DNA of 8,178 nucleotides from a virus (taxonomy: Duplodnaviria > Heunggongvirae > Uroviricota > Caudoviricetes), in IMG/VR virus record IMGVR_UViG_2778261085_000010; one strand, written 5' to 3'. The notes beneath the pieces were generated by a model, which saw nothing but the letters and a program-made list of their open reading frames with translations, did no database searches and was not told the DNA's origin. This document shows, piece after piece, positions 2,269 through 8,178 of the stretch (position 1 is the first letter of the stretch; the number at the start of each line of letters is the position of its first letter). Position numbers and translations under genes: made by a program.

Positions 2269-2317
2269 TTTTATATTGGCGAGGTGACGTGAGTTAAGTA
2301 GAATTGCTGCGGGTGCT

Positions 2318-2358
2318 TGAGGCTATCTGCCTCAGGCATGAACACCAAAGGCAGATAG
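2318..2358 (+). promoter_or_regulatory. hok mRNA leader with mutually exclusive stem-loops
   Basis: Local hairpin TGAGGC(2318-2323)/GCCTCA(2329-2334) overlaps an alternative long-range 9-bp pairing CTATCTGCC(2323-2331)/GGCAGATAG(2350-2358). Alternative folds of this kind are characteristic of hok-family mRNA leaders. Confidence 0.4.
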
Positions 2359-2479
2359 ATAAAAGCCCCAGTTAACATTACGCGTCCTGCAAGACGCTTA
2401 ACATTAATCTGAGGCTCAATCTATGAACGGCAAATCTAGGTTAGCCTCTTACGTGCCGAAAGGCAAGGAGAAGCAGGCT

Positions 2480-2635
2480 ATGAAGCAGCAAAAGGCGATG
2501 TTAATCGCCCTGATCGTCATCTGTTTAACCGTCATAGTGACGGCACTGGTAACGAGGAAAGACCTCTGCGAGGTACGAATCCGAACCGGCCAGACGGAGG
2601 TCGCTGTCTTCACAGCTTACGAACCTGAGGAGTAA
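2480..2635 (+). CDS. hokD: Hok-family type I toxin HokD/RelF (51 aa); possible in-frame upstream start at 2423
   Basis: Translation MKQQKAMLIALIVICLTVIVTALVTRKDLCEVRIRTGQTEVAVFTAYEPEE matches the HokD/RelF sequence as I recall it and carries the Hok signature (TM helix, LCEVRIR, AYE). AAGGAG RBS lies 9 nt upstream of ATG 2480. A second in-frame ATG at 2423 also has a GAGG RBS 8 nt upstream, which would give a 70-aa form. Confidence 0.85.
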   Translation: MKQQKAMLIALIVICLTVIVTALVTRKDLCEVRIRTGQTEVAVFTAYEPEE

Positions 2636-3082: not shown

Positions 3083-4138
3083 GTGCGGGTATTACTTCGA
3101 CCTGTTCCGGTACCGGAACTTGGGCTGGTGGTGCTAAAGCCGGGCCGTGAATCCATGCAGGTATTTCATAACCCTCGAGTGCTGGTGGAGCCGGAACCGA
3201 AAAGCATGCGCGGTCTGCCATCCGGGATTGTTCCTGCCGTTCGCCAGCCACAGATGGAAGATAAATCATTACTGCCATTTTTCAGCGACGAACGGGTGAT
3301 TCGTGCTGCTGGCGGCGCAGGCGCATTGTCTGACTGGCTCCTGCGTCATATTAAATCCTGCCAGTGGCCTCATGGTGACTACCATCACAGTGAAACCGTC
3401 ATTCACCGTTACGGTACCGGCGCAATGGTGTTGTGCTGGCACTGCGACAACCAGCTGCGTGATCAGACATCGGAATCACTCGGGCTACTTGCTCAACAAA
3501 ATCTGACAGCCTGGATGATTGACGTCATACGTCACGCAATAAGCGGTACACAGGAACGGGAATTATCGCTGGCTGAATTATCCTGGTGGGCGGTCCGCAA
3601 TCAGGTGGCGGACGCGCTACCGGAAGCGGTATTACGTCGTTCGCTGGGGTTGCGTGCGGAAAAAATCCGCCCAATGTACCGTGAAAGCGACATCGTGCCG
3701 GGAGAGCAGACCGCCACCAGCATACTGAAGCAGCGCACAAAAAATCTTGCACCGCTGCCTCACGCCCACCAGCAAAACCCGCCACAGGAAAAGACGGTGG
3801 TAAGCATTGCCGTTGATCCGGAGTCACCGGCTCAGTATCTCCAGCGCCAGAAACCACAACGGGAAGAGATGCCTGTATACACGCGCTGGGTAAAAACGCA
3901 GAAATGCATGACGTGCGGTAATCAGGCAGATGATCCGCATCACATCATTGGTCATGGACTGGGAGGGATGGGAACAAAGGCTGATGATTTGTTTGTTATT
4001 CCGCTGTGCCGTAAATGTCATAACGAACTGCACGCCGGGGTAAAAGATTTTGAAGAAAAACACGGCAGCCAGCTGTTGTTGCTGATTCGTTTTTTAATGC
4101 ACGCGAGAAATTCGGGTGTCCTGAAGTGGAAAGCATGA
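3083..4138 (+). CDS. ydfU: DUF968-family prophage protein (YdfU-like, 351 aa) with C-terminal HNH-like zinc motif
   Basis: GTG start at 3083, 4 nt after GGAGG (3074-3078) and 1 nt after the upstream stop. C-terminus reads CMTCGNQADDPHHIIGHGLGG...IPLCRKCHNELH. Length and synteny match K-12 YdfU (~349 aa) next to the Q gene. Confidence 0.75.
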   Translation: MRVLLRPVPVPELGLVVLKPGRESMQVFHNPRVLVEPEPKSMRGLPSGIVPAVRQPQMEDKSLLPFFSDERVIRAAGGAGALSDWLLRHIKSCQWPHGDYHHSETVIHRYGTGAMVLCWHCDNQLRDQTSESLGLLAQQNLTAWMIDVIRHAISGTQERELSLAELSWWAVRNQVADALPEAVLRRSLGLRAEKIRPMYRESDIVPGEQTATSILKQRTKNLAPLPHAHQQNPPQEKTVVSIAVDPESPAQYLQRQKPQREEMPVYTRWVKTQKCMTCGNQADDPHHIIGHGLGGMGTKADDLFVIPLCRKCHNELHAGVKDFEEKHGSQLLLLIRFLMHARNSGVLKWKA

Positions 4139-4516
4139 ATGACTGAACGCATAGAATTTGTTTTGCCTTACCCGCCGACGGTGAACACCTACTGGCGACG
4201 CCGTGGCTGCACATATTTTATATCGGAAGCCGGTAAGCGTTATCGCCGCGATGTGGCGCTTATCGTTCGCCAGCAGAGGCTGAAATTAAATCTGTCCGGA
4301 AGGCTGGCGATAACGGTTATCGCAGAGCCGCCGGATAAGCGCCGTCGTGATCTGGACAATATCCTGAAAGCGCCACTGGATGCGCTGACACATGCGGGGC
4401 TGCTTATCGACGACGAGCAGTTTGATGAAATTAATATTGTGCGCGGTCAGCCTGTTCTTGGTGGGCGACTGGGTGTGAAGATTTTCATAATCAGAGGTGG
4501 TAACGATGGCGCGTGA
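4139..4516 (+). CDS. rusA: RusA-family Holliday junction resolvase (125 aa)
   Basis: ATG at 4139 abuts the upstream TGA (ATGAATGA junction). Conserved RusA catalytic region PDKRRRDLDN...KAPLDALTHAGLLIDDEQ compares well with E. coli RusA (PDRRRRDLDN...KAAFDALTKAGFWLDDAQ) as recalled. Confidence 0.75.
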   Translation: MTERIEFVLPYPPTVNTYWRRRGCTYFISEAGKRYRRDVALIVRQQRLKLNLSGRLAITVIAEPPDKRRRDLDNILKAPLDALTHAGLLIDDEQFDEINIVRGQPVLGGRLGVKIFIIRGGNDGA

Positions 4517-4871
4517 CATTCCATTTGTTCTTGAACGATGGGGGGCATGGGCTGCGAGTGATAGCTCAGGAGTTGATTATTCCCCAATTGCTGCTGGATT
4601 TAAGGGGCTTTTACCGTGTACCAGTAAAATACGACAGGCATGCAGTGATGCGGATGGATTAATCATAGATGGCTGCCTAGCTCTTCTTAAGAAGAAAAAA
4701 CCATATGAGCACTCTCTGATTGTGGCTCATTACTTGTATGGTATATCGAAGCGGAAGATCGCAAAGGCACGTAAAAAAGATGAGAAACTAATACGTATTG
4801 AGATTAAGATGGCTGAAGGGTTTGTTGAAGGCTGTCTCTCAATGAGGGGTGTTAAACTTGAAATGGATTAG
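4506..4871 (+). CDS. Late-gene antitermination protein Q (121 aa)
   Basis: ATG 4506 with GAGGTGG RBS, overlapping the rusA 3' end by 11 nt. Motif LERWGAWAA...IAAGFKGLLP...LEMD is characteristic of the Q antiterminator family of lambdoid prophages (quuD/quuQ type). The listed start at 4497 is a GTG 9 nt earlier. Confidence 0.8.
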   Translation: MARDIPFVLERWGAWAASDSSGVDYSPIAAGFKGLLPCTSKIRQACSDADGLIIDGCLALLKKKKPYEHSLIVAHYLYGISKRKIAKARKKDEKLIRIEIKMAEGFVEGCLSMRGVKLEMD

Positions 4872-4876
4872 TGGAG

Positions 4877-4894
4877 CCCCGGTTTAAGCCGGGG
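4877..4894 (+). other. GC-rich hairpin immediately 3' of Q (weak terminator or Q-region RNA structure)
   Basis: CCCCGG-tttaag-CCGGGG, a 6-bp all-GC stem 6 nt after the Q stop, followed by ATGTTTCTG (only a short U-tract). Confidence 0.3.
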
Positions 4895-5352
4895 ATGTTT
4901 CTGAGCGAAGAGATGTTTGTTTGTGAAGCTATTATATAGTTAATTAGGAAAACATGTGTTTTCGATAGCTGTACAGGTGACTTTTTTCATCAATTTCAAC
5001 ATGGCGTGAGAAGCAGATTTTTTGCGTACCAGATGTTTTATTTGGTTTTAGATTTCAGATTATTTCGAACAACGACAAAATGCCATTGTTCGTAGAGTTC
5101 ACAGATAGAGCCACACCAGCATGAGCTTCAGGAGACAAGGTTACCCGTCGCAGTAGGGGATTTTTAAAGTGCTTATAACGGTGTTGATGTGGACTTTCAG
5201 TGTTCTGGCAGTAACAACAGTAGAAGTGAGCATTGTGGTTCATATCCAGTAAGTGTGATGCACACTCAAAATATATCTAATGGGATTAATGTTTTCTTAA
5301 TGTAAACCATGTAAAATTTCAGGGAGAGTTCAATACTTGTTCATAATTTATT

Positions 5353-6369
5353 ATGTGTAGTATCAATAAACTTAGTGTTATTGTCCCGTTATATAATGCG
5401 GGCGATTATTTCTGCACCTGTATGGAATCTTTAATCACGCAAACGTGGACTGATCTGGAAATTATCATTATTAATGATGGTTCGACAGATAATTCTGTTG
5501 AGATAGCAAAGTATTACGCGGAAAACTATCCGCACGTTCGTTTGCTGCATCAGGCTAATGCTGGCGCATCGGTAGCGCGTAATCGTGGGATCGAGGCGGC
5601 GACGGGCAAATATGTCGCTTTTGTCGATGCTGATGATGAGGTCTATCCCACCATGTACGAAACGCTGATGACCATGGTGTTAGAGGATGACCTCGACGTG
5701 GCGCAGTGCAACGCTGACTGGTGTTTTCGTGAAACGGGAGAAACCTGGCAATCCATCCCCACCGATCGCCTTCGCTCAACCGGCGTATTAACTGGCCCGG
5801 ACTGGCTGCGGATGGGACTTTCTTCCCGCCGTTGGACTCACGTTGTCTGGATGGGCGTTTATCGTCGCGACGCTATTGTAAAGAATAATATTAAATTTAT
5901 TGCCGGATTACATCATCAGGATATTGTCTGGACAACTGAGTTTATGTTTAACGCGCAGCGTGCGCGATATACCGAGCAATCGTTATATAAATATTATCTG
6001 CATAATACGTCAGTGAGTCGGTTGAACAGACAAGGGAATAAAAACCTTAATTATCAACGTCACTATATTAAGATCACCCGCCTGCTGGAGAAATTAAATC
6101 GAAATTATGCCGACAAAATTACGATTTATCCTGAATTTCATCAGCAAATAACTTACGAAGCATTGCGTGTTTGCCATGCGGTACGCAAAGAGCCGGATAT
6201 TCTTACCCGCCAACGGATGATTGCCGAGATATTTGCTTCCGGTATGTATAAGCGTATGATTACGAATGTGCGCAGTATAAAGGTTGGTTATCAGGCGTTA
6301 CTGTGGTCTTTTCGCTTATGGAAATGGCGAAACAAAACACAGGTTATGCGTCCAATTGATTGGATATGA
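5353..6369 (+). CDS. Family 2 glycosyltransferase (GT2), soluble type (338 aa)
   Basis: N-terminal GT-A fold signatures: [53 protein letters not shown] (DxD). No C-terminal transmembrane pair of the GtrB kind is apparent. No obvious RBS upstream of ATG 5353. Confidence 0.8.
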
Positions 6370-6989
6370 TTTATATTTCTCATTTATCAAGATAATCATC
6401 CAGATGATCTTATTTGGTATTTTGCGCGACTTTTCAAATATCATAGGTTACAAAAAAGTTGTTGAATTGCTGTCTATCAACATGCGTTTGCTAACGAGAA
6501 AAGAATTTGTTGGTGTATTTTTTGAGAGGATAAAATACAACCGCTTTATGCCGATATGTTTCATAACAAAAGCGAAATCCGTATTAGCAGCAATCAAGAC
6601 GAACACACCAACGGGCTTCTCATGAGTAAGGATGGTCATATTCATACTGAGCTTAATGTTGACGGCTTTTGGCTTGTATTATTCGTAGTGTACAGCTCAA
6701 GTTGTCCAAGAGGAGCGAGAGTACCATGTCTGGCTTCTGTATGGAGTGTAACAATTAGTTAAGGGTAAGATAACTCTGTCAACCATTTCATATGGGAACT
6801 ATATAAATGCTTACGCGGTCCGCAAAAACAATTGTAACATGTTAAGAGTTATTACTTCGACTTCTTTCATACCCCCACCTCCGGGCTGTTTTTTGTGCCA
6901 AAGGGGAGGACGTTGAATGTGCTGGTTGGTGTGAATATGATGGTTTATTGCTAATTGCTTACTTCCCTGATGCGTGTGAAGTATTGGGT

Positions 6990-7514
6990 ATGACATCGAA
7001 ACAGATAGCGGAAGCCACCGGAAAGAAAAACATGGCTTCGCACTGGTTTGGTACCAGCCAGTGGCAGTTACCGAATGAGGCCGATTACAGTAAACTGCAG
7101 GTGCTGTTTGCACGTGTGGCGGCAGAAAAACATCAGCGCGGTGAACTGGAGCAGCCACACCATCAGCTGGTCAGCACATACAGCGAACTGAACCGGCAAT
7201 ATGTCAGCCTGCTGGAGGAATACAAATCACTGCGGCGTTATTTTTCCGTATCAGCTGCCGTTCCTTATACGGATGTCTGGACGCACAAGCCTGTGCAGTA
7301 TTATCCGGGTAAGCATCCCTGTGAAAAAACGGCGGATATGTTGCGTCAGATAATTACTGCCAGCAGCCGTCCTGGCGATTTGGTCGCAGATTTTTTTATG
7401 GGGTCGGGGTCGACAATAAAAGCGGCACTGTCGCTGGGACGCATGGCGATTGGCGTGGAACTGGAAGAGGAGCGTTTTAATCAGACGGTCAGAGAAATAA
7501 CGAAAGATTTTTAA
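6990..7514 (+). CDS. DNA methyltransferase C-terminal fragment (beta-class N6A/N4C type, AdoMet-binding half) fused to an unrelated HTH/coiled-coil N-terminus; probably truncated and inactive
   Basis: C-terminal ~85 aa (DVWTHKPVQYYPGKHPCEKTADMLRQIITASSRPGDLVADFFMGSGSTIKAALSLGRMAIGVE) matches the HPxxKP...FxGSGT motif-I region of beta-class methyltransferases such as YhdJ/CcrM. No DPPY catalytic motif is present anywhere in the frame, which is open only back to 6846. The listed start at 6948 is a TTG; ATG 6990 (MTSKQIAEATGKK...) is more plausible. Confidence 0.55.
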   Translation: MTSKQIAEATGKKNMASHWFGTSQWQLPNEADYSKLQVLFARVAAEKHQRGELEQPHHQLVSTYSELNRQYVSLLEEYKSLRRYFSVSAAVPYTDVWTHKPVQYYPGKHPCEKTADMLRQIITASSRPGDLVADFFMGSGSTIKAALSLGRMAIGVELEEERFNQTVREITKDF

Positions 7515-7588: not shown

Positions 7589-7616
7589 TTGACATCTGAA
7601 AAACTGTCGTTAGTAT
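7589..7616 (+). promoter_or_regulatory. Candidate sigma70 promoter
   Basis: TTGACA (7589-7594), 16-bp spacer, TAGTAT (7611-7616), with an A/T-rich upstream region. Consensus-matching only. Confidence 0.3.
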
Positions 7617-8064
7617 TCTTCCAGGTATGCAGGGTTTTATCTTTTATGTTAGCTGGTGGTTGCTGGTAACCTGAAATGGTTATGCTTGCTTACATAGTAA
7701 TCCGCGTAATTACGTAATGCAGCATGCCATACAGGTATCGTATAATGGCGATTACATAAGCCTACCAGGTTGATGATGCAGGTTAGATTCCTGCTACCTG
7801 CTACCTGCCCATGGTTGTTTATGCCAAGACTATGTCAGGCACTGACATTATATTATGTGGGGTGTTTTTTATGGTTACTTGCGCACCCTGTTCTGTAATG
7901 AGTGATATTCGTTGCGGTTCCAGTGCCATTTTTTTTACAACATCGGAATGGTGCATTATTAGCAAATATTTTTTCTGCTTCAGGCATTATTCCGATGTTG
8001 TAAACATCGACAAAACAAAACCCAGATTAGTCACATACTAAGTCAAGCCCGGACATCATTCCTT

Positions 8065-8089
8065 AACCGCCGCCCAGGCGGTTTTTTTT
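8065..8089 (+). terminator. Rho-independent terminator (+ strand)
   Basis: AACCGCC-gccca-GGCGGTT stem followed by eight T residues. Confidence 0.65.
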
Positions 8090-8104
8090 ATTGTGCACAG
8101 AAAA

Positions 8105-8123
8105 CCCCCAGCTAGGCTGGGGG
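8105..8123 (-). terminator. Candidate terminator for a minus-strand gene entering from beyond the window end
   Basis: CCCCCAGC-tag-GCTGGGGG 8-bp stem; on the minus strand it is followed by TTTTCTGTG (short U-tract). Confidence 0.4.
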
Positions 8124-8178
8124 TTCCGGAAAGCTTTCAGCTTTGAGCCAGTTATTAAAACCCCTTTTGATTTGTTAA

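Follow-up and report, generated by a model that had tools for sequence, protein, structure and literature searches.

Gene Content and Organization of the Unit

The window analyzed here is an 8,178-nucleotide (nt) stretch of DNA from a virus of the class Caudoviricetes (IMG/VR record IMGVR_UViG_2778261085_000010), which represents the regulatory/late-region junction of a lambdoid prophage. Our subject is a unit close to its 3′ end (7589–8089) that starts downstream of the stop codon of a DNA methylase gene and comprises a sigma-70-type promoter, a leader, a tRNA-Gly-like gene, a trailer of ~290 nt reaching to the end of the terminator, and the intrinsic terminator itself (Table 1). The unit is likely a moron-type tRNA cassette in the late region of a lambdoid prophage of Escherichia coli or a close relative, whose tRNA has decayed, most likely to a pseudogene and at best to a crippled tRNA.

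Table 1. Positions of the elements of the cassette unit and of neighboring genes in the window.
Feature	Position	Strand	Details
Sigma-70-type promoter	7589–7616	+	−35 TTGACA 7589–7594, 16-nt spacer, −10 TAGTAT 7611–7616; predicted start ~7623
Leader, ~108 nt	7623–7730	+	Between predicted start and tRNA
Degenerate tRNA-Gly-like gene	7731–7802	+	ARAGORN; Rfam tRNA
tRNA parts			Acceptor 5′ strand 7731–7737; anticodon ACC 7764–7766; T arm 7778–7794; acceptor 3′ strand 7795–7801; discriminator T 7802
Second TACCTGC copy (7802–7808) and displaced CCA (7809–7811)	7802–7811	+	6-nt insertion relative to homologues, from alignments
Trailer domain 1	7838–7927	+	Helix GGCACTG 7838–7844/CAGTGCC 7921–7927 enclosing hairpin CTGTAAT 7893–7899/GTTGCGG 7911–7917
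Trailer domain 2	7934–8004	+	21-bp hairpin, 7934–7954 with 7984–8004; minimum-free-energy fold
Mostly single-stranded stretch, partly conserved	8005–8064	+	Alignments
Intrinsic terminator	8065–8092	+	Stem AACCGCC 8065–8071/GGCGGTT 8077–8083, loop GCCCA, T8 8082–8089, then ATT
IS200-type left end	8093–8178	+	Cut by window end; Rfam STnc490, 80 bits (gathering score 56), 8103–8178
hok/sok	2311–2635		Pfam HOK_GEF; Rfam sok, 111 bits
DUF968 gene	3083–4138		
RusA	4139–4516		
Q21-family antiterminator (Q)	4497–4871		PF06530
Family-2 glycosyltransferase (GT2)	5353–6369		
DNA methylase, C-terminal half	6948–7514		

The tRNA-Gly-Like Gene

ARAGORN calls a tRNA-Gly(ACC) with a full cloverleaf in the unit, and the Rfam tRNA model RF00005 scores the same sequence at 41.1 bits against a gathering score of 29, its stems of 7/4/5/5 base pairs (bp) being recognized despite the mismatches A1.C72 and A28.G42. 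The initial annotation of this DNA had described GCAGG-ttagatt-CCTGC as resembling a degenerate tRNA T arm; the motif is present exactly as given, but it is a true T arm that belongs to the complete cloverleaf found by both ARAGORN and RF00005.

The T loop reads TTAGATT, with A at position 56 (coordinate 7785) where 12 of 12 homologues have C, and the T54-T55-C56 motif has accordingly lost its last nucleotide. C56 is universally conserved in tRNAs and pairs with G19. In the anticodon loop U33 and A37 are kept, and the A38G change produces a C32-G38 Watson–Crick pair, which is disfavored in functional tRNAs; because of G38, the minimum-free-energy fold closes the loop to 3 nt. A34, as in the ACC anticodon, is normally confined to tRNA-Arg(ACG). 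A standard loop would be open, with 7 nt, U33, a purine at 37, no Watson–Crick pair between 32 and 38, and an anticodon used by the host; the window copy departs from this in its C32-G38 pair and in ACC. Of the identity set read by E. coli glycyl-tRNA synthetase (GlyRS), which consists of G1:C72, C2:G71, G3:C70, U73, C35, and C36, the window copy retains C2:G71, U73, C35, and C36, and has A.C in place of G1:C72 and A:U in place of G3:C70.

The 3′ end is altered as well. A tandem TACCTGC TACCTGC, noted from the start, lies exactly at 7795–7808; its first copy is the 3′ acceptor strand of the tRNA, and the second is extra. The insertion turns the homologous ...CCYGC-TA-CCYGC-T-CCA into CCTGC-TA-CCTGC-TA-CCTGC-CCA and, judged from the repeat pattern, is a slipped-strand extension of an existing CCYGCTA near-repeat formed by the T-stem and acceptor 3′ strands. 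The CCA is shifted 6 nt away from positions 74–76, and when the extra copy is included, an alternative register competes in the minimum-free-energy fold.

Divergence From Homologous tRNA Genes

Homologous units were sought by megablast and blastn against 5,426 complete E. coli genomes, a phage collection, IMG/VR, and metagenomes; in these, a gene annotated as tRNA-Gly occupies the matching position, its flanks agree with those of the window gene, and holins follow. All 14 homologues called by ARAGORN keep the anticodon TCC, as opposed to ACC in the window. In a 13-sequence alignment (the window and 12 homologues; standard tRNA numbering), the 12 homologous tRNAs are at least 95.8% identical to one another (three differences or fewer), although their trailers range down to 71%. 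The window tRNA is 81–83% identical to them and its trailer 68–87%; the excess conservation of tRNA over flanks, by which purifying selection is recognized among the homologues, is absent here. Because the divergence of the window tRNA (17–19%) is as high as that of the surrounding non-coding DNA, selection for decoding appears to have been relaxed along this lineage. The Rfam tRNA scores of the homologues (61.6–67.8 bits) exceed that of the window copy by 20–27 bits.

Relative to the consensus, the window tRNA has 12 lineage-specific substitutions, 11 of them at positions that are invariant elsewhere (position 28 varies between C and T). Two of the changes are compensated double replacements in stems, G3A with C70T and G51A with C63U, both giving A:U pairs. 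G1A and C28A create the mismatches A1.C72 and A28.G42, C40U leaves a G.U pair, and A38G forms the C32-G38 pair. U34A converts the anticodon UCC to ACC, C56A removes the universal C56, and U20aG and C26A complete the set. Both compensated pairs lie in the acceptor/T-arm minihelix, and the disruptive changes fall in the anticodon arm and the elbow.

Searches of GTDB representative genomes and IMG/VR did not return the exact T-arm variant of the window, and none of the 5,426 E. coli genomes carries a copy closer than 87% to the window tRNA. RM11911-type prophages have a second copy of the module, unannotated in RefSeq, ~785 nt upstream of the first, in which the tRNA scores 31.8 bits and has a 2-nt deletion in the anticodon loop. 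This dead copy shares five derived states with the window (A3, A26, G38, T40, and T63). A simple gene-conversion tract from a dead upstream paralogue of this kind was considered and rejected, as shared and unshared sites are interleaved and T63 is also a polymorphism in TUM1881, where a G51.U63 intermediate lies within an otherwise canonical gene.

Related arrays show rearrangement and erosion of their own. The promoter–tRNA–terminator modules of RM11911-type prophages stand in tandem (L001:5180–5925 vs L001:5994–6604), and the tRNA-Gly/holin module of phage SerU-LTIIb is likewise duplicated. In strain C311, the tRNA-Thr ahead of tRNA-Gly (L021:2322–2394) scores 47.8 bits compared with 73.8 in its relatives and has no RefSeq annotation; it is a comparably decayed tRNA of the same array type.

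Promoter, Leader, Terminator, and IS200 Junction

The good −35/−10 pair that the initial annotation placed at 7589–7616 was recovered by our scan, with 10 of 12 positions matching the consensus, and it recurs in three homologous loci (RM11911, ETEC4067, and CM2010) with an identical −10 hexamer and a similar −35 hexamer. Promoter-like sites are not enriched across the region (6 found vs 3.9 expected), so the support for this promoter comes from conservation and not from the count. The same three loci have the promoter together with the leader, and arrays that start with tRNA-Thr (tRNA-Thr/tRNA-Gly) have a different promoter-like site at the equivalent place. The leader is ~78–83% identical to homologous leaders and has no significant fold (z-score −0.5); a block at about +17 to +33 is conserved and contains −10-like hexamers. 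A decayed tRNA-Thr in the leader was rejected, its alignment scores being no higher than those of shuffled controls.

At the other end of the unit, the strong terminator proposed at 8065–8089 was confirmed by the scan, and its stem is invariant in the 13 aligned units. Homology to RM11911 ends after the ATT at 8092, where the IS200-type left end begins. In ETEC4067 (L002:6572–7164), the junction is the same but stands 4 nt nearer the stem, and an IS200C tnpA is annotated there. In the window, IS200 separates the cassette from the downstream DNA; in the homologues, holin genes come next. In CFT073 (L032:2480–3126), the same IS200 end stands behind a different intrinsic terminator just downstream of the Q gene. 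IS200 may favor insertion immediately 3′ of terminator hairpins; alternatively, the junctions may be related by descent.

A Conserved Structure in the Trailer

Positions 7803–8092 fold much more stably than shuffled controls, with z-scores of −4.67 for the plus strand and −3.34 for the minus. The RNAalifold consensus, built from 10 sequences of ~4 sequence types, consists of four elements, namely a long-range helix, the hairpin that it encloses, a long hairpin, and the terminator. Pairing is found in 97.2% of cells, and eight pairs have changes on both sides, counted on the same alignment that gave the structure, which inflates the controls; sliding the 3′ partners by 1–3 columns reduces pairing to 34–55% of cells. 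The helices of domain 1 are 97–100% paired and vary by G.U to A.U changes on one side only, and consensus helices 5 and 6 of domain 2 contain six of the pairs changed on both sides. The pairs include 80 G.U cells against 6 A.C cells, and the structure therefore holds only as plus-strand RNA. As modeled from these alignments, the trailer RNA has a structure that is conserved and specific to the plus strand. The window unit has kept its promoter, trailer structure, and terminator intact.

A smaller hairpin, CGATGTT/AACATCG, had been proposed to carry a GNRA tetraloop. Its arms are present at 7993–7999 and 8003–8009, but the spacer between them is the 3-nt GTA, which leaves no room for a tetraloop, and its 5′ arm also serves in the 3′ arm of the stronger, conserved 21-bp hairpin of domain 2. 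The 5′ arm of that long hairpin (7937–7944) contains ACAACAU and the 3′ arm (7994–8001) the complementary GAUGUUGU, which may be coincidence. ACAACAU resembles the CA-rich consensus that the R1 seed of GcvB targets.

Members of the trailer family are present in 167 of the 5,426 E. coli genomes (~3% of complete genomes). A search with the trailer pattern returned 11 contigs from viruses and 4 from metagenomes, each with the canonical TCC, and no match among GTDB representatives. No Rfam family matches the trailer: at E-values up to 10, only miRNA-like hairpin noise and isrD were returned, the latter at 21 bits, below its threshold of 37, and weak miRNA-like matches are expected because domain 2 is a long hairpin.

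The longest open reading frame (ORF) in the region, 7811–8041, would encode 76 amino acids (aa). It had been listed as the only ORF, without a ribosome-binding site; it does lack a Shine–Dalgarno sequence before 7811, but it is not the sole ORF. In the homologues, T runs of varying length (T6 to T8) and further indels of 1–2 nt interrupt it. A recurrent 41–43-aa frame that runs through the terminator stem and poly-T occurs in neither the window nor the ETEC type; 9 of its 20 compared residues differ between types, and its evolution shows no constraint on amino acids. Protein coding in the trailer was rejected on these grounds, the frames not being conserved and the variation fitting RNA pairing rules. 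RefSeq hypothetical proteins lie over some homologous trailers (L019:2639–2890; L024:2922–3242; L025:3003–3263); because variation follows RNA pairing and not codon constraints, they look spurious.

Genomic Setting

Genes in the window were assigned from the ORF list and from Pfam and Rfam matches. Prophages of porcine E. coli match the first 4.47 kb at 97.7% identity, indicating that the host is E. coli or a very close relative. Homology to the best-ranked E. coli records ends near 4473–4491 and resumes at 6950, and the interval 4474–6950 holds the Q21-family and GT2 genes. The Q gene is closest to those of phages cdtI and SfIV (77–79% identical). At 4877–4894, 6 nt past the stop codon of Q, stands a GC-rich hairpin, CCCCGG-TTTAAG-CCGGGG, whose U tract is poor; between Q and the glycosyltransferase gene, the search for a sigma-70 promoter gave no convincing site. 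A glycosyltransferase is not the usual cargo for the interval from Q to the methylase, and this one could be a moron that modifies the O antigen. Further upstream, the hok/sok locus is a complete type I toxin–antitoxin system with a Hok/Gef ORF at 2423–2635.

The methylase ORF (188 aa, TTG start) aligns to the last 565 nt of the 1,047-nt methyltransferase gene of CM2010-0578/1 and lacks the first ~480 nt of the full-length gene; on this alignment it is probably a 5′-truncated pseudogene. The surroundings of the cassette are thus decaying too, with a truncated methylase on one side and IS200 adjoining the terminator on the other.

The initial annotation had suggested tRNA cargo in the region downstream of Q, where Stx-type phages carry tRNA genes, and the relatives agree: in every annotated one, the order is fixed as a Q-like gene (PF06530 or DUF1133), a methylase, a tRNA array, the trailer and terminator, and lysis genes. 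Between the Q-like gene and the tRNAs there is often a 198-nt ORF together with the 1,047-nt DNA methyltransferase gene. The array ends in tRNA-Gly, which stands alone or behind tRNA-Thr, Ile, Lys, or Arg. Downstream of the terminator, genes for TerB and DUF3927 are sometimes present, followed by two holins and an endolysin.

Interpretation of the Cassette and Alternative Explanations

The unit has its own conserved promoter and terminator and sits between a methylase and, in the homologues, the lysis genes, as a moron-type cassette does. The logic of morons and of Q antitermination is established. In intact relatives, the cassette would supply a tRNA-Gly(UCC) closely similar to the host tRNA-Gly genes from a position directly upstream of the holin and endolysin genes. 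Its promoter would drive expression of the tRNA array independently of Q, its terminator would halt unmodified polymerases ahead of the lethal lysis genes, and Q-modified polymerases coming from the late promoter would read through that terminator. In the window, purifying selection for decoding would have been lost, with damage that includes the ACC anticodon, the loss of C56, A1.C72 and A28.G42, the C32-G38 pair, two lost GlyRS determinants, and the slipped-strand duplication. From this pattern, the window tRNA is probably a decaying, non-decoding paralogue inside a still intact cassette. The idea of a degraded tRNA remnant therefore needs amending: the gene is degenerate compared with every homologue (12 unique substitutions, 41 vs 62–68 bits), but it is not fragmentary, as two programs find the full cloverleaf. 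A confident tRNA or protein-coding prediction would count against the initial reading, and the full-length cloverleaf called by Rfam and ARAGORN goes half of the way there; the ORF is not conserved. The further suggestion of a small noncoding RNA has gained a conserved, structured plus-strand trailer of 290 nt; the small RNA itself stays a candidate.

Several observations weigh against simple decay. Each of the two stem pairs that changed in both strands still pairs, G3:C70 and G51:C63 having both become A:U, and in a simulation of 12 random substitutions, two or more compensated pairs arose in 1.9% of trials, with 2 broken pairs observed against 4.3 expected (P = 0.12). Two compensated pairs and few broken ones therefore suggest some constraint on the cloverleaf for part of its history, probably on structure and not on decoding. 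U33, A37, C35, C36, U73, G18, G19, G53, T54, T55, and A58 are all intact, the score exceeds the gathering threshold of Rfam, and ARAGORN raises no flag in calling the gene. In addition, the window −35 is a perfect TTGACA, better than those of the homologues, and transcription of the cassette is therefore probably maintained.

These points bear on a reading that overlaps with the one preferred here and that we consider unlikely as a whole, in which the tRNA-like fold has been retained as a handle for processing, the functional product being the structured trailer or a U8-ended 3′ fragment. RNase P and 3′ tRNA-processing enzymes would cut at the acceptor/T-arm minihelix, and the product would be modeled on 3′ETS-type, Hfq-dependent small RNAs (sRNAs) or sponges. 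It fits the placement of both compensated pairs in that minihelix and of the disruptive changes in the anticodon arm and elbow. It fits equally the higher conservation, relative to the nearest relatives, of the trailer (87%) than of the tRNA (81–83%) or leader (78%), and the trailer structure itself (97.2% paired in 10 sequences, eight double-sided changes, plus strand only, z −4.67), its presence in 167 of 5,426 E. coli genomes, and the intact promoter and U8 terminator. However, the T-loop/D-loop elbow recognized by RNase P is weakened by C56A, recent recombination could account for the conservation of the trailer, and the structure and pair counts come from one alignment of just 10 sequences of ~4 types; the trailer also matches no Rfam family and has no similarity to the PasA/PasC/PasD loci of enteropathogenic E. 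coli (EPEC). The specific form, in which the decayed tRNA survives only as a handle, is slightly less likely still: the real product would be the ~290-nt trailer RNA (7803–8089), transcribed from its own promoter in lysogens and released by tRNA-processing enzymes. Encoded by the prophage, this RNA would serve in regulation, as a sponge, or as a gate under RNase III control immediately ahead of the lysis genes. It is doubtful, more than either of these, that the gene encodes a functional, divergent tRNA-Gly with unmodified A34 that decodes glycine, for example by broad GGN reading, for the prophage or host. The cloverleaf above the Rfam threshold, the ARAGORN call, the 7-nt loop with U33 and A37, the retained C35, C36, U73, and C2:G71, the compensation in stems, and the intact promoter would all suit such a tRNA. 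An engineered tRNA-Gly(ACC) studied by Boren and colleagues in 1993 reportedly read all four GGN codons. Against this stand TCC in 14 of 14 called homologues, C56A, the lost G1:C72 and G3:C70 determinants, the A28.G42 mismatch and C32-G38 pair, a CCA displaced by 6 nt, and a score 20–27 bits below the homologues, together with derived states shared with a dead copy and a variant found nowhere else searched.

Two further explanations concern the unit and not its tRNA. The unit might be a Q-dependent late transcription unit of the lambda pR′-qut-tR′ kind with a 6S-like RNA, the tRNA being embedded in a short constitutive transcript; in the homologues, the promoter-to-terminator unit does lie directly upstream of holins, as in lambda, and the conserved block at ~+17 to +33 carries −10-like hexamers. 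We regard this as very improbable and rejected it on position and lack of co-variation: the unit is not immediately downstream of Q, its promoter lying 2.7 kb from the Q gene with a glycosyltransferase and a methylase remnant between them, and the promoter does not co-vary with Q type, as the same promoter stands beside PF06530 here and beside DUF1133 in RM11911 and CM2010. Moreover, phages with the closest Q genes (cdtI and SfIV) show no match to the unit, and other homologues have a tRNA-Thr array with a different promoter in place of the leader. A small Cys/Phe-rich protein, encoded by ORF 7811–8041 or from an internal start at 7871, is hardly credible: a 76-aa frame is open, GGGG lies 8 nt before the ATG at 7871, and some RefSeq hypothetical proteins cover homologous trailers, but 7811 has no Shine–Dalgarno sequence, T6–T8 runs and 1–2-nt indels shift the frame between homologues, the longest ORFs differ among them in frame and extent, and variation fits RNA pairing.

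Taken at face value, a decayed tRNA in a moron-type cassette is routine, as lambdoid prophages carry tRNA cargo behind Q and lose it by decay once they are domesticated. Annotation of the locus should therefore read tRNA-Gly pseudogene or variant, with no gene called at ORF 7811–8041. The case is an example of a phage tRNA that erodes but retains compensated acceptor and T stems. The trailer found behind tRNA-Gly arrays of prophages has a conserved plus-strand structure without a described family and is a candidate new prophage RNA element; it lies at the very place where the lysis genes have to stay silent, which makes it a candidate that is cheap to test.

Comparison With Known Systems

Several prophage sRNAs occupy similar sites. 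PasA, PasC, and PasD are encoded next to lysis cassettes (bioRxiv 10.64898/2026.05.13.724894; PMC8550237). Pas, STnc100, AgvB, and AsxR are, like the trailer, intergenic just upstream of the holin/lysozyme operon and have a terminator with a U tract. None of the known families (STnc100, AgvB, AsxR, Esr41, and Pas) has a covariance-model or sequence match in the trailer. A relationship to PasA/PasC/PasD was rejected, the best E-value in BLAST against the EPEC pasA, pasD2, and pasC loci being 0.19 or worse; AgvB and AsxR were rejected in the absence of an Rfam match in the trailer; and STnc100 was rejected because the match in RM11911 is weak (19 bits) and a real STnc100 lies elsewhere in one relative. 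Similar in layout are 3′ETS-leuZ and other sRNAs derived from the 3′ ends of tRNA or mRNA transcripts: as in the trailer, which is structurally conserved, the RNA segment extends from the 3′ end of a tRNA to an intrinsic terminator whose U tail is long. The trailer ends in a U8 terminator; Hfq-dependent 3′-derived sRNAs are defined by at least 7 U together with Hfq binding and targets. It is ~290 nt long, as opposed to ~50 nt for 3′ETS-leuZ, and has no sequence relationship to it.

As tRNA cargo, the unit resembles the ileZ-argN-argO cluster of Shiga toxin (Stx)-converting and related prophages, which also lies between the antiterminator and the late/lysis genes but has different isoacceptors; in CFT073, the order is Q, terminator, IS200, and then tRNA-Ile-Arg-Arg. 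A trailer search of the phage collection matched no Stx phage. Among host genes, 5,420 of the 5,426 E. coli genomes have an annotated tRNA-Gly that matches the window copy at 85–87%, the same level as the canonical prophage copies, but the host gene lacks such a trailer, and the window copy has diverged much further. This host gene is presumably glyT (tRNA-Gly2 UCC), in the context thrU-tyrU-glyT-thrT-tufB.

The closest counterparts are genes annotated as tRNA-Gly(UCC) in lambdoid prophages and phages of E. coli, such as those of RM11911 (F7D04_RS02710), ETEC4067 (QDX30_RS21280), and the phages JLK-2012 and SerU-LTIIb. The window differs from the annotated prophage genes in ACC, C56A, two stem mismatches, the C32-G38 pair, and the 6-nt 3′ insertion. 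Like them, the window gene follows a methylase in a unit that precedes holins; the trailer and terminator are homologous throughout, the tRNA is 81–87% identical, and in a subset of the annotated prophage units, the promoter and leader are homologous as well.

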